Shown piece by piece: positions 3,181-43,662 of a stretch of DNA of 64,000 bases (positions are counted from its first letter, which is position 1; every line of letters begins with the position of its first letter). Origin of the DNA: Marsupella aquatica. Its lineage: Eukaryota > Plantae > Marchantiophyta. Position numbers and translations under genes: made by a program. The DNA lies in assembly GCA_973895155.1 (NCBI GenBank), contig OZ316893.1, positions 22,541,844-22,605,843 of the forward strand, written 5' to 3'. The notes beneath the pieces were generated by a model. It saw only the letters and a program-made list of their open reading frames with translations. It ran no database searches and was not told the DNA's origin.

Positions 3181-3195
3181 ATGGGAAGGGGTTTT

Positions 3196-6100
3196 TGTGA
3201 TGCCTAGACAGGAATCACTCGGCCGGTTAAGTGGGTAAAGCAGGAAGGCACCCTAGGAACACCTTAGTATAGGGACAAAACAATGAAAATATAAACAATT
3301 AGGGGCAACCATGGAACCCGGGCTGAGGCCGGAGGTAAGGCTGAGGGTGAAAACCCGATTAGGGTTAGGGCGCGTTAAGCGTCGGCGGCTAGGAAGGATC
3401 AACGGGAAGAAGGACCGGCAGAGGAGAGGGGTAAGGAGCGCTTGCAGGAGATGGTGGCTCATTTGCGAGCACGAACTAGGCAGACGACTACGGGAGGCCA
3501 ACTACTGTCAGCTGCTTAGGCAAGCACTCGGGGAGAGAGTAGATACCGACGATCGACCTAAGGAGGGTATGAGCAACGTCAATCAAGCGGCACATTTCTG
3601 GGGATGCCTGTTCGAACGGGCAACTGAGTACATCAAGACTTACGAGGACGAGGAATCAGAAAGGGCAGCTCGAGAACGGCAGGAGCTCGCTTGATTGTGG
3701 GAGCTGCAGAAGACGGCTTTCTTAGGAGGCGAACTCATCAAGGACGAGTTCCTGTGGACGCCTACTTCCAATCAACTCGACGATCTTCTGTTTTGCAAAG
3801 ACAGCGTCGTCGGCATCCGAGAGGCCATCAAGAACTGCAACGATATACACTGGGAATTAAAGGGAAGCACGGAAAGGTGGACCCAGGCAACGGTGCTAGG
3901 AGAAACCTCCACGGCAGCAGAGATGAAGAGGAAGGGAGCCGTCAACGATGAAGCCACCCCGGCAAAAAGAACGAGGTCAGCGGCACCAAAGAAGCCAGCC
4001 GAGCAGCAGAGCAGGAGGCAGGGAGAAGCCAAAGAGGAGGAGGTCGATCCCATCAAGGCCATTCCAACCAGGGATGACACCTGGAAGGGCTGGGCGGCAA
4101 CCCTACCGGTGGAGGTGCAACTACATTTTGCACGGAGGAGGATGCATGCTTTACGGCCATGCAGACCAAGAAGTACCAAGGCTTCATGGCCGGATCCGGC
4201 TTAGAGGCCTTTGTGAGATTACCATGGCTGAAGCCGGAGGTACCGGAGTCAGACCTATTAGAATTCGTGGGGTCATGGGAACCCGAGACCAATTGCACGA
4301 GGATATATGGGAAGGATTTCTATCTTACTCCCAAGGTAATTGCCGAAGTGTTTGGCTTGCCGATAGGCAATAAGACCAAAGTTGATACCAGGAAGACCTT
4401 GCCTGACAAGGAGTTCCGGTCGTTCCCCGGGCCATCAACGAAGAATGGCTTCTTCCGGAACACCTGCACCAACCCGCACATAGGAGAGATGATCGACTTC
4501 TTGCGGGTGACCATGCATTGTAACTTGCCGAGGGCAGAGATCGGCAAGGCACAGGTCTATCTGGCAGAAAGGCCAGACCCAAGTCGGGACTACAACGGGT
4601 ACCTCCTCAACCAATTGAAGAAGATCTTAAAGGAGGAGCAGCAGGTAATCGGCATGGGGAGCGTGTCGCGGCTTGGCTATCACATGCCGCTGTTGTGCCG
4701 GTATGCCAGAGGTCAGACTTTTGCCCCAGTACTTCCCCTGCAGGTAAGGGCACCCGAGGAAGCTCCAACGCCGAGGCCGTTGGCTGAGAAGCCTCAACCA
4801 CCTGTTAGCCCTACAATCGAGCAGGTGTTTAGGCCCAGGAAGGAGGACTTGCCGATGCAGCAACCAGGCATGCAGAGTCTGCTGAAACTACTGGAGAACG
4901 AAAAGAAATTGGCATCGGCAACAACAACGGCAACGGCAACAATGCAGGACACTACTACAGAGGTAGGCCTACACCGGCTCACAAGAGAAAACCCCTTTGC
5001 TGGAGACAAGGAGAGGATCAGGCCTGAATCCAAGTCAGGTGTTCGAATGTATGTGGGAATCTCAAGCTCCGAATCTGAGGCAGAATTGCCTGAAGCTCCT
5101 ACCGACGAAGAGGAGAGGGAGAAGCCGGACGTCCAAGAGGTAGAGGAGGCAGTGGAGGACTGCAGCCATGATAATTCCGGCTATGGGTCGGACCATCACG
5201 TTCCAGGAGTAAGGACCTGTGGCCGGTTTGTCCCCACACTTCCAAGGGTAGTGCGAGGGGACCCCAACCAGCAGAGTAGCCCTGAGTCTCCCCCACCAGA
5301 TGTTGCTCCCCCGAGCTTCGACGGCATAAAACAGACGGTGCAGGAATTTCAGGAGCGAATCAAGCAGGAGGAGGAGGCAGCCCTGGCTAAGGAAAAGGAT
5401 TTACCAGGAGGAGATTGGCCGGAGGACATCAGGCGGCTAGCCAAAAAAGGAAGCAAACCTCTAGCCACGATTGAAGAGATCCGCAGGACGGCTTGGGAGC
5501 AGAGGCCGCGATGGGCGATGCCGATCACTTCTACTTACTCCACCTACGCTAAGAATAGAGCCATGGAGTATGGTGAGATGTGTGGGGAACTTGCGCTCGG
5601 CATCTTTGGAGAGGAGTTGGAGGTAGGACCCTTTTTCCATAGGGAGCAGTTGGAGAAGCACCAATTAGAAGAAGCGGTGGCTTTAGAGAGAAGCAAGAAG
5701 GACGAGGTCATTCGGCGGCTTAGGAGGATGGAAGCCGAGATTGAAGATCTAAGGGCGGCCAAGAAAGCCCAAGATGAACTGCGGATTAAACGACATGAGC
5801 TGAACATCATGCAGGGGCAGTTGGACACCGCGCAGGCTGATAATCAGAATATCAAGGATAAACTGACTCAGACGCAGGGAGAGTTGGCCGACACGATCAA
5901 AGAGAGGGAGAAGTGGAAGCAAGAGCTGAAGAATACAGAGGAGGCCCACATAACAGCCAACAGCCGGGCCATGGCGGAGACCCAAAGAAAGGAATGGGCG
6001 TTGAAAGGGGAGCTCGAGAAAATCCGCGGAGCCCTTGAGCAGAAGGAGGCCGAGTTAGGGAAATCCTATCAAGGGATTATGGCGCTGCAGCAGGAGCTTG

Positions 6101-7873
6101 CGTCCCTGACGGCCAGCTTCAAGGCCGACCTAAGGGAGAAGGACGAGATGCTCGAACAGACTTACGCCAAGATGAACCAGATGGAGTCTGTCATCATTGC
6201 AGAGCTCGACAAGGAGCTAAGAGCAACCCGGGAGGAGAGGACTACCTTGAAACAAGAACGGGAGGAAGCCCAGAAGGAACTAGAGGAGGCACGCAAGGAC
6301 CTGGATGAGACCCAGGAGGAGTTGGAGGAAATCACGAGGAAGATGGAGAACCTCCAGCGGCGGGCCGACAACCAAACGGAGCGGCTGAAGAAACAAGCCG
6401 CAGTATTTAAGTGCTTGTCTTCATCAGGCCCAACTCCAATTGGGGCAACCAAGTTACCAGGAGTGGTACTGGCCGAAGAAAAAGCCGCGCCAACTGCACC
6501 AGTGCCGGAAGTAAGTGGGAAGGGGAAGGGACCAGCTGCCGAACCAGAAAAGAAGAAAAAGCGGAAACCTTCAGGGTCAAGGAGTAATCTGACTCCACAA
6601 GCCATGGTGACCAAAGAGGTAGAACCAGCACCATCCTCCGACATGAATACGGCAATAGATCCCGCTATGATCACAGGTGGGGGTGGTGCGGCCCAAGCCG
6701 AACTACTCAATAAGGAGGCCGGTATTCCAGATCCGCCTCTTGAGCAGGCCGGGGAGACCGTAGCCGAGGCTGAGGCCGTAACCGATTCCCGAGCCGATGC
6801 CGACGCCGATGGTGGACCCAGTCAGGCCGATGGAGAGTTGACTCAGTCAAGGGCAGGTAATCTGTCAGGGAATGAGCCTACGGCAGTGGCTGAGGAGGAA
6901 GCGTTGGGGGCGTCCATTAAGGATCCACCACCGGTGTCGTGACGGTGCAAGGGTGCCGTTCCTTTTAGGGAGGGCGGACGTGGAGGGAGGAGGCGTGAGT
7001 GGGCAGGGCGGGCGCGGATCTCCACGTTTAGGATTAGGATCAGAACCAGGAGCGGCCCTGACACTTAGCTTAGTGGGATTGCGGTCCCACTGGTAGGAGC
7101 AACACTTGTGCTCCTGCCTTGCTGTACATAGGTAGATTCGGGCAAGTAGATTACTGTTAAGTAGATTAGGCTTACGATGCAAAGAATGGCGGATCCACTA
7201 CCAGGATAAGTACCTGGGCAGCGGGGAGCTCAGGGCCTCTTCTTTAGCAAGTTTTTAGTTTGCACCAGCCGGGCTGGGATCAAGTAGTACGAGAAGCTCT
7301 CGGTTAGTCATACAGTGACCCTTGTGTATATTCATGTTTCCTCATGCCTAAGAGCTGAATAGAGTTGGCCTCACGTCTTAGTTCGCAGAACTTGTGTATG
7401 AGATGTACTGTTTGTATGGCAAGTGCATGGTATGACTCAGTCAGAATGAGTCATTTTGCTATTTGTGTGTCGCATTAACTTGTGTGAAGAGTGCCCACAT
7501 CAACCAAAGGAAGGAAAGTAAGCAGGGGAGTGAGAGTTGGATGTGTCAAGCTGAGAGAGGTCTTAGCGGCTTAACCAAGCCTATTGGGGATCATTCCGGC
7601 GGCGGAATCCAAACATACCTAACAAGACGAAGGGGAAGACAGGGGAAGACAGGGGAAGACAGGGGAAGGCCTAGATTAGGCCGGCTACGTATCTCATGAC
7701 CCGATGAAGGATCTGTCCAGTATATGTGTGTAAAATGTTAATAGTAGTAGTAGAAGGTTAGCAGCGTCCCATGCCGCTGAGCCGCGGAAACGGCCTCGCC
7801 AAGCGCAAAACCCGCGGGAATCGACTTGAGCTGGGGGGTTTCTTGGGTTTAGGGAGCCATGGGACGCACCACA
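3196..7873 (+). repeat. 5' LTR, family A (4678 bp, TG...CA)
   Basis: Starts TGTGATGCC, ends CACCACA and is followed by the PBS. Differs from the 3' LTR by about 18 substitutions counted by eye plus one extra 10-bp AGGGGAAGAC unit. Confidence 0.97.
3311..6942 (+). pseudogene. LTR-encoded accessory gene, 5' LTR copy (~1,210 codons ancestrally; plant-transposon-type helical domain plus long coiled coil); 927-aa frame 4159-6942 remains open
   Basis: ATG in strong context (gcaaccATGG). Premature TGA at 3692-3694 (CGA in the 3' LTR) and a 1-bp deletion at ~4134. GLEAFVRLPW..LLEFVGSW..IYGKDFYLTPKVIAEVFGLP motif, then an E/K/Q-rich heptad region. Confidence 0.85.
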
Positions 7874-7877
7874 TTTT

Positions 7878-7894
7878 TGGCGCTAGATGGAGGG
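7878..7894 (+). promoter_or_regulatory. Primer-binding site, complementary to plant tRNA-Asn 3' end (1 mismatch)
   Basis: TGGCGCTAGATGGAGGG 4 nt after the LTR. Plant tRNA-Asn(GTT) ends ...CCCTCCTTCTAGCG-CCA (recalled, not looked up). Confidence 0.75.
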
Positions 7895-7942
7895 GGCATT
7901 TCTTAAGCCGTGAGATATGAAGTTAGAACGGAAGCATAGGTA

Positions 7943-10930
7943 ATGACTGACCTTACGCCAAGGGAAGAAAGAGTGATTCAACGGGAGAGAGCTCGACTGC
8001 AGCAGCTCGCCGGGTGGCATGATACACAGCGACTGAGAGGGGCAGAAAGAGCTGGTAGCTCTGAAACTGGAAGTGGTGTCGAAGAAGACATACCAGAAGA
8101 AGAGTCGGTAAGGAGAAGTGAGTCTCCAACCGACATGGGGGAACCAGAGGCACGGCCAGACGAGAGGCCAGGGACCAGATTGAGCCAGCGGTCGCGCATA
8201 CATTACAAGGCATTTCATGGGAGAGGAGATGAGGATCCGGACGAATGGTTGGATGATTTCGAGGGAACCGCTGCAGCAAATGGAGAATCGGCCATCAAGA
8301 TGCAGATTCTTCCCGGCCTGTTCAAGGGTGAGGCTAGGCCTTGGTACAGAGCATTAGATGTGGAAGATCAAGCCATCTGGGATATCTTCAAAACACTCTT
8401 TGTTAAGGAGTTTTGACCCATTGGAACTTCAGAACTAGCAGTGCTGGAGTTGGGACAACTTCGGTTCAAGGAGAACAAATCCTTCAGGAAGTTCTTGCAA
8501 CGCTTTCAGAAACTGGTAAGACGTACAAAGACCAATGCATCTGAAGGTATGCAACTTCAATGGTTGGTGAATGCTTTGCCACAGAAGATGAGTTTTGCAA
8601 TTAGGAAGGAGAACCCAGAGACTTTAGCCGAAGCAATTAAGGATATTCAATTATACATTAATGCAGATATCACAAGCCGGAAGAAACAGCTTAAGTCTGA
8701 GAGTTCCTCATCAGAGGAGGGATCACCCCATAAGAAAAAAGATAAGAAGAAGAAACATTCTAAGAAGTCTAGAAGTGATAAGTCAAGCTCGGATAGTGGG
8801 AGTAGCAAGAGTGAGTCATCTTCTAGTTCTGAAGAAGAAAAAACTAGGAAAAGGAAGGGCAGAAGGAGAGGGAAGACGAAAGTCAAGATGGAGGCTAAGC
8901 CACCAGATAACATCGTAGCCCTTACCGAGCAACTTAAGGCTATCATTGCAGAGGTAAAACCAAAGAAGAAGGTAGTACAGGAGGACAGCTCTGTATGGTG
9001 TGCCTTATGTTATAAAACCGGACACCATAAAGATGCGTGTCCTAAGCTTAATACTAATCATGTTCGGCATGTGGCCGAGATCAGACCATGTCAAGGAGAA
9101 GTAGAGTACTTTTTAGGAGATGCCGCTGATAGTGTTTTCGGCATCAGTGAGACTGGAGCACGAGACCTATCCAACAGACCTGCATCTCTATGGTCAGGGT
9201 TAAGGAACAATCCAGGAGAGATGTATCCTCGGATTATTCAGAACCCGTCAGTACCTCCTAGGCCAAATGTGCAAAGATTTGCGGCGTGCTATAATTGTGG
9301 TCAACCTGGCCATTTTGCTAGAGAATGCCCGAATGCACGCAAACAGGGTGATGGACAACCAGCTCAGCTATGTATGGGATGCCGACAGGAAGGTCATATG
9401 CTAGGGCAATGTCCTACTTGGTTGGCAGGCCTGGCCGCAAATCATAAACTTTTGCCGGTCAAGATCCTACCGCCAGGCACTACCCCCGGAGGAGTTCAAA
9501 TCAACCACATCGAACTAGGATGGCAAGAGGATGCCGAGGCAGAGTTCGTACCATCTGATGATGAGGCTGAAGCCCTATCAACCTTCTCAGAGGAGGATTT
9601 AGATCATGATTGCTACCGGGTCTCTACTCGATCTACCAGAAGGAAGGAAAGGTGGGATGGGCTGGCCAAAAATAAAGGGAAGGTTACGGAGGAAAATATC
9701 GACTCTTTGTCAACATCAACAGAAGGAGAAGGGAGGGCTCCGGCAATACAGGTAAGCCATGAGCCCACCAGTGAAACCAATCCTTCACAAGATAGCGACT
9801 TCAATCGAGATCATCCTAAGTTGTTCTACCCCTCTGTTACGGCTAGTGTTAAGGAACAACTAAGAGAATTAGAAACCCTGGAGAATACCGAAGCCATTGC
9901 CAAGGATGTAAAACGAGCAAAAGCATTGTTTGCTTCGGAAGACCCAACAGCTGTGAAGACTAGCGTGGCAAAACTGGCCGAATCCAAGACGGAAACACCA
10001 CCAGAGGAGAAGCCGATTGTTCCCTATGACCTGGCTAAAGATGTACTAGAATCTAGAGTCTCGGCAATAGTAGGTCAACTATTGAAAAATAGCCCATACT
10101 TCCGGAAGCAATTAAGGAAGGCTATTCTCGGCAAGCCGAGGTTACCCAAGGTAGCAACCAGATCCGACGTACTAATGATAGAAGAAGATCAAGGAGCCCC
10201 AGCATTACCCTTAATGATTCAAGGAGAATTATTACTATGGGTACCCATCGATGGAGGATCAGGGGTATGTATTATGATTGATTCAACAGCAAAAGGGTGG
10301 GGTCCAACACTGGAGATGACTGAAAGAGTGTTGAACATGGCCAATGGATATCAGGTCATTCCCACGGGAGTGTTAACCGGCATCAAGACAGAGATAGGAG
10401 GTATCTTCTTTAGCATTAACTATGTAGTAATGAAGCCGGTAAATCCTACGTCATTCCGGCTATTGATTGGTAGGCCATGGCTGTACCTAGCCGACGTAAT
10501 AGAAGATTGGGGTAAAAAGTAGTTCACTTTCGGGACCCCCTCTATCACGGTATCCTGGGACACTAAGGATGACCGTAGGAAAAGCATAAGGGAAGTAGAT
10601 GGGTACGACAGTGGACTGGAGTCAGCCGATGAAGTACGTTGGTTAGAATGCCTCACTGACCTAACCGAAGAAAGTGTCTTTGGACCAGAGGTACCCCCCA
10701 GCGGATTATGGCAAGAACCAATGGAAGGTGACTTGGAAGACGAAGAGGTCGAGGACTGCTTTACAATAGAATCCACCTTTTTAGCTGCAATTCCGGAGGA
10801 AGTAAAGGATGTAGACCAATTGGATGAAACGACTAAGTGGGGAGCAGTAGCAGGGATAGTGGATTTTCTGCAGGCGTTGTGGCAGAGCCGGCAGGGTTCA
10901 CAACGCTATCGATCATCGGCAAGGAATTAA
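7943..10930 (+). pseudogene. gag: Gag-protease reading frame with two in-frame stops (TGA 8414-8416, TAG 10520-10522)
   Basis: One frame throughout. Retrotrans-gag motif FHGRGDEDPDEWLDDF..GEARPWY. Three CCHC knuckles (CALCYKTGHHKDAC, CYNCGQPGHFAREC, CMGCRQEGHMLGQC). Aspartic protease IDGGSGV...LLIGRPWL. Confidence 0.9.
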
Positions 10931-13900
10931 ATACCAAGGGATCGGCATACAAGCCGATTACGAGGGCAGAACAAATTGAGGCCCTATTAGAAGCCGAGAG
11001 AGCACAACGGCCTAACTCTCAGGAGCAAGAGGTGGATGAGATGGACAGACACGATCCAGAGCCAAGGCAGGAAGGGGTGCCGACCACCAATTCAAAACCG
11101 AATAGACCGGCAAGGGGACAATCTATGGACACCAAGGACGGGACCGACTCGGCTAGTCCAGCCGAGATCCCAGTTTATGGAGGTATGAGATTAGAGAGAC
11201 TGGAAGCCAAACTGGACCCGAATTTGAAGAAGCAGATTAATATGATCCAAGCACGGCAATATCGGAAGCTCGACTTAGGAGAGGGAAGAGAACTGAACTT
11301 AGGGAGAAACCTAGCACCTGAGCTCGAGAAAGAGATCAGTGACTTATTGATTGAATTTCAGGATGTGTTTGCATGGAGTCACCAAGATCTAAAGGGAGTA
11401 GATCCAACACTAGGGGAACATCGAATTGATCTCATGTTAGGAGCCAAATCATTTCGACAACCAATTCAAAGGATAAACCCGAAGTATTCCCTGCTGGTCA
11501 AAACAGAAATCGACAAACTAGTGGAAGCTGGATTCATCACTCCAGTCCTGCATTCAGACTGGGTGTCTCCAATTGTGATAGTTCCCAAGAAAGCTGGACC
11601 CGATGGTAAACCCAAGATCCGAGTTTGTCAGGATTACAAGAAGCTGAATGAAGCAACATTAAAAGACCATTTTCCTTTACCGTTTACTGATATGGTATTA
11701 GACATGGTAGCCAGTCATGAACTATATTCATTCATGGATGGATACTCTGGTTATAACCAAATCAGGATTCGGCAGGAAAACCAAATCAAGACGGCCTTCA
11801 TCACGGAATGGGGGATCTATGTCTTCAATCGTATGCCGTTTGGACTCTGCAACGCACCAGCTATGTTTCAACGATTAATGGTGAACATTTTTCATGATTA
11901 CTTGAGAAAATTCATGGAAATCTTCATTGACGACTTTGCAGTATTCGGGAAGGCATCGAAACATGCTAAATACCTCAGGAAAACCTTCATGAGATGTAGA
12001 GAGGTGGGTCTCAAGTTACACCCAGATAAATGTTTCTTTGCAGTAACCGAGGGGGTGCTACTAGGTCACAAGGTATCAAGGAAGGGCATTGAGATTGACA
12101 AAGGTAAGCTAGCAGTATGGCTAGATATCATGCAACCTAAGAACATAAAGGATGTAAGATCCTTCTTGGGATGCATTGGTTACTATCGCCGGTTCATCAA
12201 GGATTTTGCCAAGCTAGCTTTACCATTAACCAACATGCTCAAGGCAGGAGCAGACTTCGAACCCACACCCGAACGAGTCACAGCGGTGGTAGAATTGAAG
12301 CAGATGTTAGTAGAGGCCCCAGTCATGATAGCACTGGACTGGAACAAAGATTTTCATGTTTTTGTAGATGTCTCGGGCTTCTGTATTGGCTCAGTACTAA
12401 GTCAGTTGGATGAGAAAGGAAGGGACCATCCCATATACTTCGCAAGCCGTCAGCTTGCCGATGCCGAACGGAACTACTCTACCACAGAAAGAGAAGCATT
12501 AGGAGTCATTTATTCTTGTAAAAAGTTTAGGCATTATTTACTAGGGTACAAGGTAATCTTTCATACCGATCATGAAAGTTTGAAGTACCTAGTCAATAAG
12601 CCGGACCTTACAGGCAGAGTAGCAAGATGGATTTTGCTATTACAGGAGTTTGACTATGAGCTGAGAATCAAGCCGGGAAAGTTACATGCCAATGCCGACT
12701 TCTTTTCAAGGATCACAGGTAAACCTGCCACGGATTGCATCGATGATCGATTCCCCGACGAGGAGCTATTCGTTGTGGAAATAGCTGGTACATGGTACCC
12801 TGAGATTTTACAATTTCTCAGCACTTCCAGATTACAGCCAGGATTAAGCCGAGAGCAAGCCGCAGTCTTTGTGCGGAAGGTCAGACAGTATCAGTGCATT
12901 AAAGGCATACTGCACAAGCATGGAATCAACGGCACGATTCAAAGATGTTTGGAAAAGAGAGAGGTAAAACGAGTCCTACGGGCCATGCATGGAGAGGAGG
13001 CCGGAGGACATTTTGCCCAAGTAACCACGTCTAAGAAGATATTAAATGCCGGTTACTGGTGGCCCACCTTGCACAAAGATGTCTATCAGTTTATCAAACA
13101 ATGCGATCCTTGTCAACGAGCGGGAGGACCAAGGGCGTCCACCAGGCATCCACTGCACCCTATTCTACCTCTGGCACCATTCGAGAAGTGGGGTATTGAT
13201 TACATTGGACCTCTGAAACCACTGACCCACCCTCGACGGAACAAGTACATAATCCTGGCTACGGATTATGCAACTAAATGGGTAGAGGCCAGACCAACAA
13301 CGAAGGATGATGCAATTACTACGGCTAGATTCATGTATGAGCAGATCTTCACCAGGTATGGAGCACCCCTAGAATTAGTTAGTGATAGAGGAACCCATTT
13401 TTTGAATGATATAATTAGTCGTTTAAATGAGCAGTATTTAGTTAAACATAGGCCTACTACTCCCTACCATCCAAAGGCAAACGGGTTGACAGAACGAGCA
13501 AATGGAATTATAGGAAAGATATTGAACAAACCAGTAGCTCAGAACAAACTTGATTGGGACGATAAATTGTTTGCTGCTGTTTTTGCTTACAATCTTGCCT
13601 ATAAATCCACTACCGGTCATACACCCTTCTTCTTAACCTTTGGACAAGAAGCCCTGGTACCCATGCAACTTGAGACACCGACATTTCAAGTTACAATTGA
13701 GGAAAGAGCCTCAGCGGAGGAGAGCCTAAAGGAGCGAGAATATAGGTTAGAAGCTTTAGAGGAAGCGAGAATGATTTCAGCCGAGAGAGTAGAATATAGA
13801 CAGAATATCATGAAGCAGCAGTATGATAAAAAGTTGAAAGTAGTTAGTATTCATACCGGTGATCTTGTGCTACTTTATGACAATAGGTATAGTAGGTTTC

Positions 13901-14103
13901 CAGGAAAGCTTTACACTCGCTGGTTAGGACCCTTTAGAGTAACCATGATGTTCCCCAATGGCTCCGTACAATTGGCCAACATTACGGGAGAGGTATATCC
14001 AGTTCGCATCCATTATGACCGCCTCAAGAAATACTATATGGACGAAGATGAAGTTGTTCGCGAGGACGCTTCACAATTAAGTGGGGAGCTATGTGATGCC
14101 TAG
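10837..14103 (+). CDS. pol: Pol (RT-RNase H-integrase), intact 1088-codon frame at -1 relative to gag-PR
   Basis: RT: RVCQDYKKLN, MDGYSGYNQI, MPFGLCNAP, FIDDF. RNase H: DVS..IGSVL..NYSTTEREAL..TDH. Integrase: H-H-C-C, WGIDYIGP, SDRGTHF, NGLTE and WLGPF (GPY/F). The stop codon lies inside the 3' LTR. Confidence 0.96.
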   Translation: MGSSSRDSGFSAGVVAEPAGFTTLSIIGKELNTKGSAYKPITRAEQIEALLEAERAQRPNSQEQEVDEMDRHDPEPRQEGVPTTNSKPNRPARGQSMDTKDGTDSASPAEIPVYGGMRLERLEAKLDPNLKKQINMIQARQYRKLDLGEGRELNLGRNLAPELEKEISDLLIEFQDVFAWSHQDLKGVDPTLGEHRIDLMLGAKSFRQPIQRINPKYSLLVKTEIDKLVEAGFITPVLHSDWVSPIVIVPKKAGPDGKPKIRVCQDYKKLNEATLKDHFPLPFTDMVLDMVASHELYSFMDGYSGYNQIRIRQENQIKTAFITEWGIYVFNRMPFGLCNAPAMFQRLMVNIFHDYLRKFMEIFIDDFAVFGKASKHAKYLRKTFMRCREVGLKLHPDKCFFAVTEGVLLGHKVSRKGIEIDKGKLAVWLDIMQPKNIKDVRSFLGCIGYYRRFIKDFAKLALPLTNMLKAGADFEPTPERVTAVVELKQMLVEAPVMIALDWNKDFHVFVDVSGFCIGSVLSQLDEKGRDHPIYFASRQLADAERNYSTTEREALGVIYSCKKFRHYLLGYKVIFHTDHESLKYLVNKPDLTGRVARWILLLQEFDYELRIKPGKLHANADFFSRITGKPATDCIDDRFPDEELFVVEIAGTWYPEILQFLSTSRLQPGLSREQAAVFVRKVRQYQCIKGILHKHGINGTIQRCLEKREVKRVLRAMHGEEAGGHFAQVTTSKKILNAGYWWPTLHKDVYQFIKQCDPCQRAGGPRASTRHPLHPILPLAPFEKWGIDYIGPLKPLTHPRRNKYIILATDYATKWVEARPTTKDDAITTARFMYEQIFTRYGAPLELVSDRGTHFLNDIISRLNEQYLVKHRPTTPYHPKANGLTERANGIIGKILNKPVAQNKLDWDDKLFAAVFAYNLAYKSTTGHTPFFLTFGQEALVPMQLETPTFQVTIEERASAEESLKEREYRLEALEEARMISAERVEYRQNIMKQQYDKKLKVVSIHTGDLVLLYDNRYSRFPGKLYTRWLGPFRVTMMFPNGSVQLANITGEVYPVRIHYDRLKKYYMDEDEVVREDASQLSGELCDA
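14079..14091 (+). promoter_or_regulatory. Polypurine tract
   Basis: AAGTGGGGAG(CTA) immediately 5' of the TG of the 3' LTR. Confidence 0.8.
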
Positions 14104-17100
14104 ACAGGAATCACTCGGCCGGTTAAGTGGGTAAAGCAGGAAGGCACCCTAGGAACACCTTAGTATAGGGACAAAACAAGGAAAATATAAACAATTAGGG
14201 GCAACCATGGAACCCGGGCCGAGGCCGGAGGTAAGGCTGAGGGTGAAAACCCGATTAGGGTTAGGGCGCGTTAAGCGTCGGCGGCTAGGAAGGATCAACG
14301 GGAAGAAGGACCGGCAGAGGAGAGGGGTAAGGAGCGCTTGCAGGAGATGGTGGCTCATTTGCGAGCACGAACTAGGCAAACGACTACGGGAGGCCAACTA
14401 CTGTCAGCTGCTTAGGCAAGCACTCGGGGAGAGAATAGATACCGACGATCGACCTAAGGAGGGTATGAGCAACGTCAATCAAGCGGCACATTTCTGGGGA
14501 TGCTTGTTCGAACGGGCAACTGAGTACATCAAGACTTACGAGGACGAGGAATCAGAAAGGGCAGCTCGAGAACGGCAGGAGCTCGCTCGATTGTGGGAGC
14601 TGCAGAAGACGGCTTTCTTAGGAGGCGAACTCATCAAGGACGAGTTCCTGTGGACGCCTACTTCCAATCAACTCGACGATCTTCTGTTTTGCAAAGACAG
14701 CGTCGTCGGCATCCGAGAGGCCATCAAGAACTGCAACGATATACACTGGGAATTAAAGGGAAGCACGGAAAGGTGGACCCAGGCAACGGTGCTAGGAGAA
14801 ACCTCCACGGCAGCAGAGATGAAGAGGAAGGGAGCCGTCAACGATGAAGCCACCCCGGCAAAAAGAACGAGGTCAGCGGCACCAAAGAAGCCAGCCGAGC
14901 AGCAGAGCAGGAGGCAGGGAGAAGCCAAAGAGGAGGAGGTCGATCCCATCAAGGCCATTCCAACCAGGGATGACACCTGGAAGGGCTGGGCGGCAACCCT
15001 ACCGGTGGAGGTGCAACTACATTTTGCACGGAGGAGGATGCATGCTTTACGGCCATGCAGACCAAGAAGTACCAAGGCTTCATGGCCGGATCCGGCTTAG
15101 AGGCCTTTGTGAGATTACCATGGCTGAAGCCGGAGGTACCGGAGTCAGACCTATTAGAATTCGTGGGGTCATGGGAACCCGAGACCAATTGCACGAGGAT
15201 ATATGGGAAGGATTTCTATCTTACTCCCAAGGTAATTGCCGAAGTGTTTGGCTTGCTGATAGGCAATAAGACCAAAGTTGATACCAGGAAGACCTTGCCT
15301 GACAAGGAGTTCCGGTCGTTCCCCGGGCCATCAACGAAGAATGGCTTCTTCCGGAACACCTGCACCAACCCGCACATAGGAGAGATGATCGACTTCTTGC
15401 GGGTGACCATGCATTGTAACTTGCCGAGGGCAGAGATCGGCAAGGCACAGGTCTATCTGGCAGAAAGGCCAGACCCAAGTCGGGACTACAACGGGTACCT
15501 CCTCAACCAATTGAAGAAGATCTTAAAGGAGGAGCAGCAGGTAATCGGCATGGGGAGCGTGTCGCGGCTTGGCTATCACATGCCGCTGTTGTGCCGGTAT
15601 GCCAGAGGTCAGACTTTTGCCCCAGTACTTCCCCTGCAGGTAAGGGCACCCGAGGAAGCTCCAACGCCGAGGCCGTTGGCTGAGAAGCCTCAACCACCTG
15701 TTAGCCCTACAATCGAGCAGGTGTTTAGGCCCAGGAAGGAGGACTTGCCGATGCAGCAACCAGGCATGCAGAGTCTGCTGAAACTACTGGAGAACGAAAA
15801 GAAATTGGCATCGGCAACAACAACGGCAACGGCAACAATGCAGGACACTACTACAGAGGTAGGCCTACACCGGCTCACAAGAGAAAACCCCTTTGCTGGA
15901 GACAAGGAGAGGATCAGGCCTGAATCCAAGTCAGGTGTTCGAATGTATGTGGGAATCTCAAGCTCCGAATCTGAGGCAGAATTGCCTGAAGCTCCTACCG
16001 ACGAAGAGGAGAGGGAGAAGCCGGACGTCCAAGAGGTAGAGGAGGCAGTGGAGGACTGCAGCCATGATAATTCCGGCTATGGGTCGGACCATCACGTTCC
16101 AGGAGTAAGGACCTGTGGCCGGTTTGTCCCCACACTTCCAAGGGTAGTGCGAGGGGACCCCAACCAGCAGAGTAGCCCTGAGTCTCCCCCACCAGATGTT
16201 GCTCCCCCGAGCTTCGACGGCATAAAACAGATGGTGCAGGAATTTCAGGAGCGAATCAAGCAGGAGGAGGAGGCAGCCCTAGCTAAGGAAAAGGATTTAC
16301 CAGGAGGAGATTGGCCGGAGGACATCAGGCGGCTAGCCAAAAAAGGAAGCAAACCTCTAGCCACGATTGAAGAGATCCGCAGGACGGCTTGGGAGCAGAG
16401 GCCGCGATGGGCGATGCCGATCACTTCTACTTACTCCACCTACGCTAAGAATAGAGCCATGGAGTATGGTGAGATGTGTGGGGAACTTGCGCTCGGCATC
16501 TTTGGAGAGGAGTTGGAGGTAGGACCCTTTTTCCATAGGGAGCAGTTGGAGAAGCACCAATTAGAAGAAGCGGTGGCTTTAGAGAGAAGCAAGAAGGACG
16601 AGGTCATTCGGCGGCTTAGGAGGATGGAAGCCGAGATTGAAGATCTAAGGGCGGCCAAGAAAGCCCAAGATGAACTGCGGATTAAACGACATGAGCTGAA
16701 CATCATGCAGGGGCAGTTGGACACCGCGCAGGCTGATAATCAGAATATCAAGGATAAACTGACTCAGACGCAGGGAGAGTTGGCCGACACGATCAAAGAG
16801 AGGGAGAAGTGGAAGCAAGAGCTGAAGAATACAGAGGAGGCCCACATAACAGCCAACAGCCGGGCCATGGCGGAGACCCAAAGAAAGGAATGGGCGTTGA
16901 AAGGGGAGCTCGAGAAAATCCGCGGAGCCCTTGAGCAGAAGGAGGCCGAGTTAGGGAAATCCTATCAAGGGATTATGGCGCTGCAGCAGGAGCTTGCGTC
17001 CCTGACGGCCAGCTTCAAGGCCGACCTAAGGGAGAAGGACGAGATGCTCGAACAGACTTACGCCAAGATGAACCAGATGGAGTCTGTCATCATTGCAGAG

Positions 17101-18759
17101 CTCGACAAGGAGCTAAGAGCAACCCGGGAGGAGAGGACTACCTTGAAACAAGAACGGGAGGAAGCCCAGAAGGAACTAGAGGAGGCACGCAAGGACCTGG
17201 ATGAGACCCAGGAGGAGTTGGAGGAAATCACGAGGAAGATGGAGAACCTCCAGCGGCGGGCCGACAACCAAACGGAGCGGCTGAAGAAACAAGCCGCAGT
17301 ATTTAAGTGCTTGTCTTCATCAGGCCCAACTCCAATTGGGGCAACCAAGTTACCAGGAGTGGTACTGGCCGAAGAAAAAGCCGCGCCAACTGCACCAGTG
17401 CCGGAAGTAAGTGGGAAGGGGAAGGGACCAGCTGCCGAACCAGAAAAGAAGAAAAAGCGGAAACCTTCAGGGTCAAGGAGTAATCCGACTCCACAAGCCG
17501 TGGTGACCAAAGAGGTAGAACCAGCACCATCCTCCGACATGAATACGGCAATAGATCCCGCTATGATCACAGGTGGGGGTGGTGCGGCCCAAGCCGAACT
17601 ACTCAGTAAGGAGGCCGGTATTCCAGATCCGCCTCTTGAGCAGGCCGGGGAGACCGTAGCCGAGGCTGAGGCCGTAACCGATTCCCGAGCCGATGCCGAC
17701 GCCGATGGTGGACCCAGTCAGGCCGATGGAGAGTTGACTCAGTCAAGGGCAGGTAATCTGTCAGGGAATGAGCCTACGGCAGTGGCTGAGGAGGAAGCGT
17801 TGGGGGCGTCCATTAAGGATCCACCACCGGTGTCGTGACGGTGCAAGGGCGCCATTCCTTTTAGGGAGGGCGGACGTGGAGGGAGGAGGCGTGAGTGGGC
17901 AGGGCGGGCGCGGATCTCCACGTTTAGGATTAGGATCAGAACCAGGAGCGGCCCTGACACTTAGCTTAGTGGGATTGCGGTCCCACTGGTAGGAGCAACA
18001 CTTGTGCTCCTGCCTTGCTGTACATAGGTAGATTCGGGCAAGTAGATTACTGTTAAGTAGATTAGGCTTACGATGCAAAGAATGGCGGATCCACTACCAG
18101 GATAAGTACCTGGGCAGCGGGGAGCTCAGGGCCTCTTCTTTAGCAAGTTTTTAGTTTGCACCAGCCGGGCTGGGATCAAGTAGTACGAGAAGCTCTCGGT
18201 TAGTCATACAGTGACCCTTGTGTATATTCATGTTTCCTCATGCCTAAGAGCTGAATAGAGTTGGCCTCACGTCTTAGTTCGCAGAACTTGTGTATGAGAT
18301 GTACTGTTTGTATGGCAAGTGCATGGTATGACTCAGTCAGAATGAGTCATTTTGCTATTTGTGTGTCGCATTAACTTGTGTGAAGAGTGCCCACATCAAC
18401 CAAAGGAAGGAAAGTAAGCAGGGGAGTGAGAGTTGGATGTGTCGAGCTGAGAGAGGTCTTAGCGGCTTAACCAAGCCTATTGGGGATCATTCCGGCGGCG
18501 GAATCCAAACATACCTAACAAGACGAAGGGGAAGACAGGGGAAGACAGGGGAAGGCCTAGATTAGGCCGGCTACGTATCTCATGACCCGATGAAGGATCT
18601 GTCCAGTATATGTGTGTAAAATGTTAATAGTAGTAGTAGAAGGTTAGCAGCGTCCCATGCCGCTAAGCCGCGGAAACGGCCTCGCCAAGCGCGAAACCCG
18701 CGGGAATCGACTTGAGCTGGGGGGTTTCTTGGGTTTAGGGAGCCATGGGACGCACCATA
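14092..18759 (+). repeat. 3' LTR, family A (4668 bp; terminal CA mutated to TA)
   Basis: Direct repeat of 3196-7873, followed by the TSD GTTTT. Confidence 0.97.
14207..17838 (+). CDS. LTR-encoded accessory gene, 3' LTR copy: 297-aa and 927-aa frames separated by one 1-bp frameshift (~15030)
   Basis: ORFs 14207-15100 and 15055-17838. The solo-LTR copy reads through this junction (HFAREEDACFTAMQTKK), giving a 1210-aa ancestral ORF. Confidence 0.85.
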
Positions 18760-18858
18760 GTTTTTTGCTTTGGCAGTACTGATGTGTGTCCGATATGTTT
18801 CCGATGTTATTTGAATGGGATATGGTATGGGACTTTAGTGTTTTACAATGTCTAGGTT

Positions 18859-23231: not shown

Positions 23232-26200
23232 ACTAACTCGTGGGGGGCACGTCTCTATCTTCCACTACAACTACGTTGGGTCTCTCTTGGACTATGGACC
23301 ATGATTTGGGAATATACGGCATGACAATGGACCACTCGGGGTCATTGGGATAGGGTAGGTAAAAGCATTGCTCAAGGTGATGTGGGAAGCCAAAGGGATT
23401 GAGGACCTCCAGTTGGAACTGATGACACTATTTGCGGATGTCTTCAAACGAGTAAAACCGCATGCATCACCTTCACAAGTACGATTGTAGCCTACAAGAT
23501 TCATCTTGAACCATTTTCACTTGAATACCACTTCCTCAAAAGTAGTATGTGCATGGTACTTCACTGTTAGGATCTCCTCAATCTTCCCATAATGGGCCAT
23601 AGTGGAGCAAATGGGATTCATGTCTGACATGCTAGCTACTATGGGAATCTTGGGTGAACCAACCCATCACCCCACAATCCTGTGTAGCTGCCCTCTTCTC
23701 ATCAAATTGTTCCACATGAAAATGTCTCCCCTTTGACCACATGGCAGTCCAAGTCGTGACTATAAGTAGTGGACCATGAACCAAGGTACAAAGTTTATCT
23801 GTCACGTTTGGGTAGTGTAATACACTCTCCCCGGTACACACCATGGCATCCACTTCTAACAACTTCTCCTTCATGTATGGGTGAAACTTGGGAAATAACC
23901 ACGGGCGTCAACTGCTTTGCTTCTCCTCCTCATAAAATGTTGTCCACTCCCCAAAAACCTCGGGTGAGTTATACAACATAAATGTTGTGAGCTGTAAATG
24001 CTCCGCTGAGCCTATGAGACGCTCTCCAGATGCCCTAGTGAGTCTATCATCCTTGTAGTCAGCCTCTCATGCCGCCTCATCTATCCATCCCCTAGGAGCA
24101 CTAGGATCTAGTGTGGCAACTATGTTTGTAAAGTAAAACATAAGTCTCTATACTCTAAGATGACGCTCCGCAATGCTACCTTCCACCCTAGCACAATTAA
24201 AGACATATGACTTCATCACCCCCATATAACACTCTACCCAATACATCCATCGACAATGTACTAGGCTTGCAATTGCAACCTTGCGCACTAAATGTATGAG
24301 GAAATGAACCTGACCATCAAAGAATGAGGGAGGGAGTGCCTTCTCCAACTTGCAGACAACCTCTACTCCAAATATCTCCATAGTAGCAATGTCATCCTCC
24401 TGTACCTCCTTTTGACATACCCATCTTAAGAGCTTACCCAATGACCAAAGGGCATCACGAAGTTCCTCACTACCCAATCCATAATAGCAATTGGAAGAAC
24501 ATGTTCAAGCAATCGATGATAATCATGTATCTTCAAGAAAGATGGCCATTTTGGAGAATCCTCCCCCCCAAAATGCCTTCCAAAGATTGGTACCATAACC
24601 TGTGGGAAACCTCATCGACCCAATATGTCTGCGAAACTCAATGCACTCTGCCCTTGTCAAAACCCCGGGTCAAAACCCAAGGAGGATGGATGCTAGGGGG
24701 AGCACCAGGGGGTCCAAAGATGGCCAAAAACCCAAAAGACCATGCATCCCCATCTCCTCACAACTTTCTCTCCAATTGTTATTTTTCTCCCCATATAGAT
24801 GGCGAATCAATGATTTCCCCACATTCCTCTCAATGTGCATAGGGTCTAACAAGTGATTAATGGGCATATTTGACCAATATGGCAATTGTGACAATGCAGA
24901 CAAACGGGTCATGCCACATCTGAATAATGGTAATGGATCACTCGGATCCTGAACTCTCCCCCATATCTCTCTCCAATATGCTGGATCCTTCCGCTGAGGT
25001 TGAGGACGAATATCAGGTTGGCCCTCATCAGTATCATAAAGGAATGGATCACTCCTCCAAGGATGGTCTGGTGGAAGATATTTAGTATGACCAATGTAAA
25101 CAATTTTTTGCAGAGTACTTGACTTGGGCCTGGCCAGTACCCCCTCCAAATTGGGTTCACATGTAGAGCAAGCCGGATAGCCTGATGTTTTCAATCCAGA
25201 AACATATCCAAACCCTGCCCAGTGCATAGAAAACACATTCATAAAATAAAGTTCATCCGGGGGTTCATCAAGGCAAAAATCTGCATAATTGCAATTATGC
25301 AAGGTTTAGGTACTAGAGGAAATAAGGGTTTACCATACCTGGTAAATCATGCATGGTCCACATAAGGATGGCCTTTAGAGTAAATGCGCGGGATAAACCT
25401 CCTATGTTGTGACGTCCATCATAACAATCCACTCCTCTCCACAGTTGTATCAACTCATCAATCAATGGCTACAAGTACACATCAATCTTTTTAACCTGCT
25501 TAGGACCCGGAATAATCATGGAGAGTAGTAGACCGTGACCTTTCTTCATGGCCATCCAAGGATGGATGTTGTAGTTTGTCAACACTACTGGCCACACCGA
25601 ATATGGTTTGGCTTTTCCTGCCAATGCAAAAGGGCTGATACCATCTGCCGCCAAGCCTAGTCGAACATGTCGTGGGTCAATTTTGAACTCTCCCCATCTA
25701 TCCTCTACAAATCGATTGGCAGGAGAGTCAACCATCATGTACTCAGTTGCCCGTTCGAACAGGCATCCCCAAAAATGTGTCGCTTGATTGACGTTGCTCA
25801 TACCCTCCTTGACTCGATCGTTGATATCTGTTCCCACCCAGAGTGCTTGCCTAAGCAGCTGACAGTATTTGGCTTCCCGTAGTCGTCTGCTCAGTTTGTG
25901 CTTGCAAATGAGCCACATGGCACTAGAGGGTACATCCATATTAGAACAATTTTTTGAGTGCCATACCATCATCTCAACCGACTCTGCACATCGGAATTGA
26001 TGTCGCAATCGAGGGATACGAGGAAACTTGTACCTCATAACCTTTTGCGGTACCTTCCCCGTCAACATGTCATCACGGTACCGTGGCTTATGACATTTAG
26101 GACATGTACTCGCATTTTCATGCTCACCCCTAAAAACAATGCAATCATCCACACATGCATGTATCACCTCATACTTCAGGCCAATGGACTTCAACACCTA

Positions 26201-28471: not shown

Positions 28472-29860
28472 GTAAGCTGCATAAAAGAAGACAAGTGTTG
28501 GAGTATCAAAATAGAATTAATTAATGCATGAGATACAAAAGTCCTGTTGCACCTCAATGATACCCGCGCTTTGCCATCCTATTGTGTCGTATTTTCTACG
28601 TGACACAAGGTGTGGGACATCCAAAATCTCTCCATATATGGGTGAGCATTTTGCTAATGAGCATACATAATCTGTAAGTGCGAAAGAGTGTAGAAAGAAC
28701 ACACCACATATAAAAAATGCCAACATACAAATTAAGTGTAAATGATGCGGCTCATGAAGCGGGGACATCATACCTCTTGGATGCGCGGTCTCACACTATG
28801 CATAGTGCATTGTCCAAAACAAAACCTACCTACCCCCTCACAAACATCGAACCACCCCTCCAAATGCAAGGTACTGTGCATCAAATCCAACACAACCATT
28901 AGCCTAATATATGGAGGTTGCACCTTATCCTAAGAAAAGGTGTGGTGCGTCCCATGGCTCCCCAAACCCAAGAAACCCCCCCGTACAAGCCGATTCCCGC
29001 AGGTTTTGTCCTCGGCGAGGCCGTTTTTACGGCTTAGCGGCATGGGACGCTGCTAACCCACCTTCTACTACTACGATTAACATCTTATGTCCACACATAT
29101 ACTGGACAGATCCTTCATCGGGTCATGAGATACTTAGCCGGCCTATTCTAGGTCCTCCCTTGTATTCCTCTCCTGGTCTTCCATTAGGTATGTTTGGATT
29201 TTGCCACCGGAATGATCCCCAATTTGGCTTGGTTAAGCCGCTAAGACCTCTCTCAGCTCAACACATCCATCTCTCACTCCCTTGCTACTTCCCTTCATTG
29301 ATGTGGGCACTCTTCACACAAGTTAATGCGACACACAAATAGCAAAATGACTCCTTCTGACTGAGTTATACCATGCACTTGCCATACAAACAGTACATCT
29401 CATACACAAGCTCTGCAAACTAAGCCGTGAGGCCAACTCTATTCAGTTCTTAGGCATGAGGAAACATGAATATACACAAGGGTCACTGTATAACTAACCA
29501 AGAGCTTCTCTTACTACTTGATCCCAGCCTTGCTGGTGCAACTAAAAACTTGCTAAAGAAGAGGCCCTGAACTCCCCGCAGCCCAGGTACTTATCCTGGT
29601 TGTGGATCCACCTGATTCCTTGCAGCGTAAGCCTAATCTACTTACTGTAATCTACCTAACTGTAATCTACCTATGTACAGCAAGGCAGGAGCACAAGTGT
29701 CGCCCTCACTCGTGGATCCGCAATCCCACTAATCTAAGTGTCAGGGCCGTCTCCTGGTCCTGATCCTTAGTCTAAACTTGGAGATCAGCGCCCGCCCTGC
29801 CCACTCACACCTCCTACCTCCATGTCTGCCCTCCCTAAAAGGGACGGCTCCCTTGCACCG

Positions 29861-32800: not shown

Positions 32801-33840
32801 TTGGTGCCGCCGACCTCGTTCTTTTTGCCGGGGTGGCCTCTTCATTGTTGTTTCCTTTCCTCTTCATCTTGGCTGCCGTGGATGTTTCTCCTAGCACAGT
32901 TGCCTTTGTCCATCCTTCCATGCTACCCTTCAATTCCTAGTGCGCGTCATTGCAACGGTTGATGGCTTCCCGAATGCCGACAATTCTGTTTTTGCAAAAT
33001 AGAAGGTCATTGAGCTGATTGGCAGTAGGAGTCCACAAGAACTTGGCCTTGATGAGTTCTCCTCCTAAGAAGGCAGACTTCTGCAGCTCCCGCAGTCGAG
33101 CGAGCTCCTGCCGCTCTCGAGCTGCTCTCTCCAATTCTTTGTCCTCGTAAGTCAGCCTGCATATGAATCCTGAATTTTATTTGCAAGTGTACACAGATGA
33201 TTTCTGCGAGCCATGCCGTATCTTGTTCGCAGTTCCAGTGAGCTCTTGGCTGTAAGCTGCAAACATACAGCAGCCGCGAGCGCATAACCAACTTCCTCGC
33301 GGAAAGCAAAAGCCCCAATAACAAACATAGGTTCAGCGTGTAGTAACCAAATGTTCGAATCATAAGCGAGGGAAAAAACGTATTTCATTTTATGAGCGCC
33401 TCGTATACTTGGCAGGTTGGGAGGCAGTGGAGGAAGACCTATATATAGGTACTCCTCGAAGAGCTAACCTTTTCTTTTATTGGCTACCAACACGATTTGT
33501 TTATGCCTATCAAAGAACCTTTAGAAGCTAATTCACGAAAAACTATACGAGAAATGCGAAATAACTTATATACGGAACGAGGGCGCCCTGTGAAAATACA
33601 CCGGTTTCTTACTCGTGTTTTGGAACTATTTCTTGGCAACTTAGACAACTTAGAAAAATATTCATAACGGTTACAGTAGACGTGGAATTTCCTCTATTCC
33701 TTGCGAGCGGTCCTTATCCCTCTCCTCCTCTAGTCTTCCCTCCCGTTGGTCACCCCTAGCCGCCGACGCTTAGTGCGCCCTAACCCTAATCGTATTCTCT
33801 CCCCCAACGTGTTTACTTCCAGCCTCGGCCCGGGTTCCAT
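29861..33840 (-). pseudogene. Degenerate LTR-encoded accessory gene in the solo LTR
   Basis: Fragments 32937-33134, 31851-32933, 30686-31333, 30422-30607 and 29861-30364 are homologous to the 297+927-aa protein. Several stops and frameshifts. Confidence 0.9.
33154..33690. other. ~537-bp non-LTR filler DNA of unknown origin replacing ~180 bp of the solo LTR
   Basis: Homology to the family-A LTR stops at ~33153 and resumes at ~33691. No match seen elsewhere in the window. Confidence 0.8.
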
Positions 33841-43219: not shown

Positions 43220-43662
43220 CTATCCCCCTTCGTCTGCCATAGTAACAAGAAACAAGGTGTTGTCACCAACTATCGATCCGAAGAGGTCTATGCCACTTGA
43301 TCCGTTGTTGTGCTTTTGCTCTGTTGCACCCTTGCGCCTTTGCTCCGGAATGTCATTGCGCAGTTTCTCCAAAGCGCCGTTGCGCTGTTGCTCCAAAGCG
43401 CCATTGCGCTTTTACGCCAAAACGCTCTTTGCGCCCTTGGTCAAACTTGGCAGCACCAATCTTCCTTTCGCACTTTGAGAACATCGATAGTAGTTTCTTC
43501 TGACTTGTCTCACCCCTACCTAATTACTCAGGGTATTATCCATTAATCTGTCTAACTTAAGTCTTAACCTTACTTATATCTAAAGGTAGATTAATTGGCT
43601 ATGTTTAATCTATTTCTAACTACAAAAATTTTAAAATTTTTCATTATTTCTAAGTTTCTAAT

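Follow-up and report, generated by a model that had tools for sequence, protein, structure and literature searches.

A large gene under apparent purifying selection lies within the long terminal repeats of a Ty3/Gypsy retrotransposon of the liverwort Marsupella aquatica

Structure of the element

The window analysed here, a 64,000-nt stretch of contig OZ316893.1 from the liverwort Marsupella aquatica, contains a Ty3/Gypsy retrotransposon of 15,564 bp (window positions 3196-18759), which is flanked by GTTTT target-site duplications (TSDs). Its two long terminal repeats (LTRs) together account for 9,346 of the 15,564 bp, that is 60% of the element, as stated in the original prediction. Most of each LTR is taken up by one large gene, which is the subject of this report. 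Positions with a plus sign refer to the LTR, all others to the window, and the coordinates of the features are collected in Table 1.

The features of a Ty3/Gypsy element are present: two LTRs, a primer-binding site (PBS), a polypurine tract (PPT) and a TSD in the range of 4-6 bp. The PBS, which we take to be of the tRNA-Asn type, the PPT and the GTTTT duplication were found as predicted. The predicted TG...CA termini apply to the 5’ LTR but not to the 3’ LTR, which ends with TA instead of CA through a C>T exchange at 18758. The two LTRs are 99.6% identical: they differ at 18 substituted positions (17 of them transitions), and a short repeat contains an indel of 10 nt. Their Jukes-Cantor distance is 0.0039, and therefore the insertion is young. 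The internal region of 6.2 kb is nearly all gag-pol, with gag beginning 69 bases past the end of the 5’ LTR. Its domains follow the Gypsy order gag (weak), zf-CCHC, reverse transcriptase (RT), RNase H and integrase according to Pfam, while the protease was identified by eye.

In contigs of four public runs, 30 of 30 bins were covered in each run, the LTR gene to the same extent as the remaining LTR. Joints between LTR end and PBS are present in contigs of three of the four runs, and a near-identical joint was found in the fourth. The summed contig depth of the LTR was approximately 3.8 times that of the internal region in the runs X1 and X2 (12 versus 16 bins, hand-averaged), where depth does not represent copy number.

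Reading frame of the LTR gene

The frame begins with an ATG at LTR +116, ends at +3747 and spans 78% of the LTR, in agreement with the original prediction. It is not, as had been assumed, a single open frame. Near LTR +938 the frame is broken by 1 nt in the 5’ as well as in the 3’ LTR (window ~4133 and ~15029), and an extra TGA at 3692 is private to the 5’ LTR. The frames which are actually open encode 927 aa in both LTRs and, upstream of this, 297 aa in the 3’ LTR only. Thus, the claim that each LTR encodes a protein of ~1,210 aa had to be abandoned for this locus: none of the three gene copies in the window is intact, this length is reached only across the break, and from the probable start the length is ~1,124 aa. 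Overall, the gene occupies 72-78% of the LTR, lies on the sense strand and is located wholly between the LTR ends.

The third gene copy is found in a solo LTR of a diverged subfamily, ~10 kb away from the full element. Its frame is interrupted by no fewer than three stops (32939, 30688 and 30424) and three frame changes, and the segment from +259 to +438 is replaced by ~530 unrelated bases. At the +938 site, the solo LTR reads in frame. The in-frame form at 15029 is also listed in all four public runs (18, 17, 2 and 1 contigs), and 4 of 17 homologues of the protein begin their alignment upstream of the break. Since solo LTR, contigs and homologues read in frame across this site, we consider the break to be damage and not the normal state. 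The shared break might be taken to prove that the gene is not needed in cis. This reading was rejected, because a single reverse-transcription error would be passed on to the two LTRs, and an assembly error affecting them alike is possible as well.

The segment missing from the solo LTR is represented by a displaced piece of 180 nt at a distance of 7.4 kb, the ends of which match the gap to within a few bases. The displacement looks like a local cut-and-swap repair event. The ~530-nt insert in the solo LTR (window 33160-33700) has a TATATATA box and an acceptor-like end. CACTA Transposase_21 fragments are present at 24670-26068 on the minus strand, and repeated blocks resembling subterminal repeats flank the solo LTR (28816-28890 and 34201-34275).

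The displaced piece and the solo LTR are informative on the translation start. Codons 1-45 have a ratio of nonsynonymous to synonymous substitution rates (dN/dS) of 1.17 when compared to the solo LTR. In the comparison of codons 50-86 with the displaced piece, 12 changed codons are nonsynonymous and 2 are synonymous; after Met87 the corresponding numbers, which are small, are 1 and 2. Because codons 1-86 look unconstrained, the ATG at +116 is likely not the start. Met87 at LTR +374 is the sole in-frame ATG between +116 and codon 112. Thus, the protein probably starts at Met87 and comprises ~1,124 aa. A spliced 5’ end of the LTR gene may also exist.

Purifying selection on the LTR gene

When the 927-aa frame was compared to the solo LTR, a dN/dS of 0.285 was obtained for this one pair of sequences (901 codons; dS 0.42, dN 0.12). 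Along the frame the values are, in order, 0.11 (residues 1-190), 0.40 (linker), 0.22, 0.21 (coiled coil) and 0.53 (tail), and upstream of the break codons 112-272 have a value of 0.17. The controls gave 0.80 and 1.42 for two shifted frames and 0.85 for the non-coding tail. Further, sites differing from the solo LTR are more frequent at codon position 3 (212 of 908) than at codon position 2 (94 of 910; Fisher p 8e-14). For this pair, dN/dS is thus well below the value near 1 that would have spoken against the original prediction. In the element and in the solo LTR the gene occupies the same position with respect to the same LTR ends, and selection therefore acted while the gene was located in the LTR. 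We conclude from these sequence comparisons that the LTR gene is genuine and under purifying selection between subfamilies.

It should be considered that the gene could be a passenger from a DNA transposon or another source, which was captured by the LTR or is nested in it, with a dN/dS below 1 that predates the capture or stems from recombination with an unrelated source. All three local copies are broken, MULEs are known to carry PMDs (plant mobile domains, the domain group discussed below), and distant relatives of the conserved domain are present in another repeat of the window. In addition, divergence between the subfamilies is lower in the tail than at synonymous sites. Mosaic exchange also takes place, since two groups of 38 and 6 contigs agree in the tail from 17856 but not upstream of it. 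However, neither terminal inverted repeats nor an internal or target duplication of a nested element were found around the open reading frame (ORF) inside the LTR, where only short, chance-level repeats exist; a separate transposon with its own termini, which would have undermined the original prediction, was thus not found inside the LTR. Moreover, the gene has the same place and the same ends in both subfamilies at a dS of ~0.4 and a dN of ~0.1, and contigs cover it like other LTR parts in all four runs. An origin as a passenger is thus very unlikely.

Table 1. Positions of the element, the LTR gene and related features in the window.
Feature	Positions	Strand	Remarks
Left TSD	3191..3195	+	GTTTT
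5’ LTR	3196..7873	+	4,678 bp, TG...CA
TATA-like box, 5’ copy	3290..3295	+	LTR +95; likely promoter of the LTR gene (function inferred)
LTR gene, 5’ copy	3569..6942	+	from likely start Met87; interrupted by TGA at 3692 and by the 1-nt break (~4133); open for 927 aa at 4159-6942, its longest open stretch
PBS	7874..7895	+	four T, then TGGCGC...
gag and protease region	7943..10930	+	Retrotrans_gag (weak), zf-CCHC; stops at 8414 and 10520
pol frame	10837..14103	+	RT, RNase H, integrase; runs through the PPT, stop at LTR +10 to +12
PPT	14079..14088	+	short, within the last pol codons
3’ LTR	14092..18759	+	4,668 bp, TG...TA
TATA-like box, 3’ copy	14186..14191	+	LTR +95
LTR gene, 3’ copy	14465..17838	+	from likely start Met87; ~1,124 codons across the 1-nt break near 15029
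Conserved alpha/beta domain	~14950-15620	+	3’ LTR copy
Predicted coiled coil	~16555-17305	+	3’ LTR copy; ~250 aa, charged, proline-free
Non-coding LTR tail	17839..18759	+	TGTA-rich to ~18430, candidate 3’ untranslated and poly(A) region; remainder candidate U5 (roles inferred)
Right TSD	18760..18764	+	GTTTT
180-nt LTR piece	25737..25916	-	LTR +259 to +438, 89% identical; inside a CACTA Tnp2 pseudogene
Solo LTR of diverged subfamily	28941..33956	-	5,016 bp, ~83% identical, TSD AAAGG, with the same gene

The encoded protein and its relatives

The protein contains, in this order, a conserved domain, an acidic/proline linker, a predicted coiled coil, a basic KKKKRK run and an acidic tail. The linker, the ~250-aa region of the putative coiled coil and basic runs resembling nuclear localization signals had been noted in the original prediction and are indeed present in the sequence.

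An env-like protein for cell-to-cell movement, which has moved into the LTR, would fit the position of the gene, which on the genomic RNA comes right behind pol and in the same sense, since this is the env slot (PMC7264820; here and below, statements on papers cited by PMC number refer to the available parts of their text). However, no transmembrane stretch was found: the maximal Kyte-Doolittle values are 0.92 (over 19 residues) and 0.46, and no segment is hydrophobic enough to cross a membrane. A signal-like N-terminus was not seen by eye, and the basic runs are of the nuclear type. Due to the lack of a transmembrane helix in the predicted protein we regard it as not env-like, and a relocated env gene is extremely improbable.

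A HMMER search with a 230-aa domain query in 1.84 billion representatives revealed 17 proteins with E<=0.001, one of which is spurious; the best match had 38% identity and an E of 2e-44. Among 10 of these homologues that were looked up, two carry names, and both are Calypogeia fissa loci (CAM6122807.1 and CAM6090539.1). For the alignment, P0133 (a helicase-associated repeat protein) and P0132 (a short fragment with a frameshifted appearance) were removed and P0138 was added. When the 927-aa ORF was used for phmmer in a set of 5.8 billion sequences, none of 7,995 candidates scored. A profile search at lengths of 1,303-3,720 aa was also negative (0 of 2,751), a metagenome scan with the domain confirmed none of 42 stretches, and the best E of a PDB sequence search with the profile was 0.64.

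Distant relatives of the LTR domain are two ORFs of a second family in the window, at 43663-44460 and 42416-43240 on the minus strand (hhalign E 6e-4, probability 28%), which are 32% identical to each other. The ORF at 42416-43240 begins ~270 bases past a purine tract followed by TG at ~43511, a possible LTR start. LTR ends were not found around the two ORFs, and the region is repeated in the public runs. The same moderately repeated region harbours ORFs of 206 and 349 aa without Pfam match (40645-42618, minus strand).

Transcription of the LTR

A box matching TATA[AT]A at LTR +95 is the sole such match in the LTR, and the stretch is identical in the solo LTR. It is followed by the conserved TAGGGTTAGGG, presumably a telo-box-like motif. 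A transcript starting 25-30 bases past the box would begin at or beyond the ATG at +116, which agrees with this ATG being unused.

Downstream of the gene, the tail differs from that of the solo LTR by 5-13% per 100 nt, which is below the 23% at codon position 3 (p 3e-18). Conservation of non-coding LTR sequence is highest between +4050 and +4450, and TATAT motifs are found at +4132 and +4516. The density of TGTA is 8.4 per kb from the stop to +4340 versus 0.7 per kb in the ORF. UGUA-rich upstream elements belong to the poly(A) signals of plants. Two groups of 38 and 6 contigs have the tail from 17856 (18 bases past the stop) in common and differ upstream of it, a hint that diverged gene versions may ride on a conserved tail.

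Based on these signals, we consider it likely that the gene lies in U3 and that every LTR forms a complete transcription unit of its own. Transcription of the LTR gene would start from the TATA-like box at +95, pass Met87 and the stop codon (+3747) and end at a poly(A) site around +4,300. The genomic RNA would begin at a second promoter in the conserved tail.

Alternatively, the same selected gene could be part of R or U5. Then the box at +95 would start the genomic RNA, the gene would be its first ORF, and gag-pol would be expressed via splicing or by read-through of the first poly(A) site. That the only TATA[AT]A of the LTR, which is conserved in the solo LTR, could equally serve the genomic RNA speaks for this arrangement and weighs against placing the gene in U3. 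PMD ORFs of Ogre elements are also located upstream of gag. Further, maize LTR retrotransposons give rise to many spliced, LTR-contained transcripts (PMC13192763). On the other hand, R or the strong-stop DNA would have to be 4.2-4.5 kb long, and the RNA of ~15 kb would contain two copies of the gene. The conserved part between +4050 and +4450 with the TATAT motifs at +4132 and +4516 would suit a U3/R junction. In maize, an initiator is present in about a quarter of the transcribed LTR promoters, and half of these are TATA-less (PMC13192763). We therefore regard a location in R or U5 as unlikely, though as a serious rival, and prefer U3.

gag-pol and the lineage of the element

The gag-pol of this copy is broken by the two stops listed in Table 1 and by a frame change between protease and RT. 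At 10520 a sense codon is present in contigs of three of the four public runs. For the protease/RT offset, a frame-restoring variant was absent among the indels listed for public-run contigs (12 of 15), and this break may therefore be typical of the family. At 10837-10930 the frames of protease and RT overlap with a -1 offset. The overlap may reflect a programmed frameshift or an intron. Ogre elements have an intron at such a position.

The closest matches of the RT are from Calypogeia fissa (69%), followed by unnamed sequences and Riccia (55-59%) and by ferns and seed plants (45-49%). In an RT tree of 43 sequences, 42 of which were hand-picked from 120 listed matches, without labelled Athila, Tat, Phygy and Selgy references, the RT of the window is sister to four C. 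fissa sequences (support 100/99) inside a clade with two Riccia sequences. Together with the named domain homologues, this points to a liverwort as the likely host. After the integrase no chromodomain was found by Pfam (E<=0.1), and pol ends at 14103. Thus, the element is a young non-chromovirus Ty3/Gypsy retrotransposon. A second, additional RNase H, by which Tat is defined in the REXdb sense, was not found by Pfam either; in a wider sense, which admits the Z1/Z2 elements lacking this domain, the element may still belong to Tat. An RT-based metagenome scan detected two loci of ~1 kb, which are too short to show LTRs.

Possible role of the LTR gene

Taken together, we favour with moderate confidence the view that the LTR gene is an accessory gene in the sense orientation, kept by selection between subfamilies, the product of which is likely a nuclear, PMD-like regulator that would act in trans on the chromatin of the element. 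The lead to this protein group comes from the conserved domain. A gapless by-eye alignment of its core (W-x-P-E-T ... T-x-Q ... G-L) to one PMD sequence from the supplement of PMC5418596 has 8 of 28 identical positions, the motif having been chosen by hand and without a statistic. Among 30 Atlas hits of the homologue P0134, DUF1985 and PMD are the only sets with a Pfam name; both score 0.85, which is below the mark of 0.9 used by this tool (128 and 143 shared features, ranks 14 and 20), so that they serve as a lead only. These leads, each weak and obtained separately, coincide. Based on this, the folded domain is fairly likely to belong to the PMD/DUF1985 group as a distant relative. It is followed by a predicted coiled coil, which would oligomerise, and by basic runs, which would mediate nuclear import.

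Several points weigh against our view, in addition to the limits of these two leads and to the damage in all three local copies. An intact full-length LTR gene was not seen in the public-run contigs, which are short, and dN/dS was calculated from a single sequence pair without confidence interval. The Pfam models of PMD (PF10536), DUF1985 (PF09331), Athila ORF-1 and Transposase_28 were not matched by the domain at E<=10, and for the 17 homologues there was no relevant Pfam match at E<=1. The structure comparison proposed with the original prediction was carried out, but AlphaFold reached a pLDDT of only 35 with a single sequence and 48 with 18 alignment rows. With the latter model, the best Foldseek hit had an E of 5 and the best VIA hit a Z of 4.4 (none with Z>=5); the models are too poor to inform on the fold. 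Finally, the lineage placement was made without REXdb references, and the RT tree shows only a liverwort clade.

How a gene could have entered an LTR is suggested by its position. On the genomic RNA it would directly follow the pol stop, and this is the slot of Athila-type sense extra ORFs (PMC7264820). A shift of the PPT upstream into the end of the integrase would draw such a gene into the LTR and thus into U3.

During reverse transcription the LTR is copied to both ends of an element, and LTR-LTR recombination leaves one of them. Hence, the gene is doubled at insertion and survives in solo LTRs, whereas gag-pol is deleted. This part of the original prediction is supported by the solo LTR in the window, although its gene copy is decaying and although survival in solo LTRs has already been documented for sag (PMC4667437).

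PMD proteins act in silencing, and for PMDs carried by MULEs an anti-silencing function has been put forward (PMC5418596). By analogy with MAIN/MAIL1 and with this idea, a PMD-like nuclear oligomer could act in trans on the silencing of its family. It is therefore tempting to speculate that the LTR gene counteracts or modifies the silencing imposed on the family by the host and is supplied in trans by intact copies; we put this forward tentatively. The most far-reaching version is doubtful, namely that the liverwort Gypsy LTR is a self-contained gene for a PMD-group anti-silencing factor of ~1,100 aa, which is doubled by insertion and of which a solo LTR keeps a copy from promoter to poly(A) site.

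A selected U3 gene could also serve replication instead of silencing, for example as a coiled-coil scaffold for particle assembly, in nuclear import or in tethering of the integration complex. The charged coiled-coil region of ~250 aa, the basic runs and the integrase without chromodomain are compatible with such functions. Coiled coils of the SMC type are present in extra ORFs of Retand and PvRetro13, and for the nuclear Grande gene23 roles in import have been proposed (PMC7264820, PMC11963269). Yet the sole family leads, PMD and DUF1985, are silencing-related proteins, and an independent promoter in each LTR would be more in keeping with a regulator that diffuses than with a particle protein needed in stoichiometric amounts. 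A role in replication is thus distinctly unlikely when compared to the regulatory function favoured here.

Comparison with known systems

In several respects the gene resembles the extra ORFs of plant non-chromoviruses (OTA): it is large, lineage-specific, fast-evolving and selected, and it has a coiled coil, nuclear features and a PMD-type lead (PMC6317226, PMC7264820, PMC11963269, PMC3485330). Non-chromovirus LTRs can reach ~5 kb, extra ORFs occur frequently in this group, and PMD is present in 57% of Ogre elements (PMC6317226). In contrast to the env-like or ORF-1 genes of Athila, the PMD ORF1 of Ogre, TRP28 of Retand/Grande and ORF0 of Retrosat2, which are all described as internal, the gene described here fills 72-78% of the LTR, and the internal region contains only gag-pol. 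Accordingly, the arrangement is not that of Athila, with a sense ORF between pol and the 3’ LTR, since pol stops and the ORF begins inside the LTR. It is not that of Ogre, since there is no extra ORF between PBS and gag, and not that of Retand/Grande, with an antisense TRP28 ORF behind pol and before the 3’ LTR, since the gene is in the sense orientation inside the LTR and a match to PF04195 was not found.

The layout resembles that of MMTV sag and other betaretroviral LTR genes, which are located mostly in U3 and have an internal U3 promoter among several (PMC4667437). As in sag, the ORF lies within the LTR ends and is retained in a solo LTR. Fossil copies of sag are mostly solo LTRs (490 of 527 contigs), with a pooled dN/dS of 0.289 and neutral decay after insertion (PMC4667437). 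The two genes differ in that no sequence relation exists (no Pfam match) and in that the plant element has no env. The sag product is a much shorter membrane superantigen.

To MAIN/MAIL1 and the PMD-A of Gypsy elements (PMC5418596) the LTR gene is tentatively linked by the gapless match of the core motif seen by eye, by the weak Atlas hit of a homologue and by the association with Gypsy. In contrast to PMD proteins, which were reported for angiosperms, there is no HMM match, and a domain of ~200 aa is fused to a long coiled coil and located inside an LTR. Like the Tat Z1/Z2 elements of liverworts, which lack the additional RNase H and exist in Marchantia (PMC10508981, PMC13468544), and like Phygy/Selgy (PMC6317226), the element is a non-chromovirus without additional RNase H and has liverwort RT relatives; as in Phygy/Selgy, its polyprotein extends over nearly the entire internal part. 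Unlike it, these elements are described, in the available text, as short or with no LTR genes mentioned.

No plant element with a gene inside its LTR was found by full-text searches of the literature, in line with the background given in the original prediction; Repbase and REXdb, which may contain an earlier description, and the 2011 Genetica survey of extra ORFs lay outside this comparison. In their available text, the papers on liverwort genomes and Tat elements PMC12885004, PMC9985172, PMC10508981 and PMC13468544 do not mention an LTR gene, and no plant case was present in the available text of PMC11656987, PMC13558583, PMC13192763 and PMC1560396. Thus, what is new is an unusually large, selected, LTR-borne gene in a plant Gypsy family, while selected U3 genes kept in solo LTRs are already known from sag.

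The gene is important for several reasons. Since the LTRs of plant elements are regarded as non-coding and surveys look for extra genes in the internal region, a selected 3.4-kb gene in the LTR of an abundant family would be overlooked or, at solo LTRs, annotated as a host gene. The arithmetic of element removal is also affected, because LTR-LTR recombination deletes gag-pol but not the LTR gene. If the PMD link is true, the PMD group reaches liverwort Gypsy elements, which makes an origin of MAIN/MAIL1 from transposon counter-defence testable. A Gypsy-borne PMD relative far outside the angiosperms would then favour a transposon origin of MAIN/MAIL1, a question left “fully open” in PMC5418596. 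Last but not least, a coding LTR is an alignable marker for the dating of solo LTRs.

Other features of the window

Downstream of the element, an ORF of 644 aa (20258-22192, plus strand) has a coiled-coil-like middle part and no Pfam match, and it is located upstream of a region with 68% similarity to 793-1421. It probably served a DNA transposon, now decayed, as an accessory gene, and no relationship to the LTR gene was detectable (hhalign E 0.21). Further along the window, a host NB-ARC gene is found at 48996-52300 on the plus strand, with an ORF downstream of it that resembles ARM repeats, as judged by eye. A unit of 3.1 kb (59022-62266) has direct repeats of ~150 bp at its ends and tandem arrays of 39 nt and 18-19 nt inside. 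Finally, an array of ~70-nt repeats at 44900-45600 is highly repeated in the public runs.

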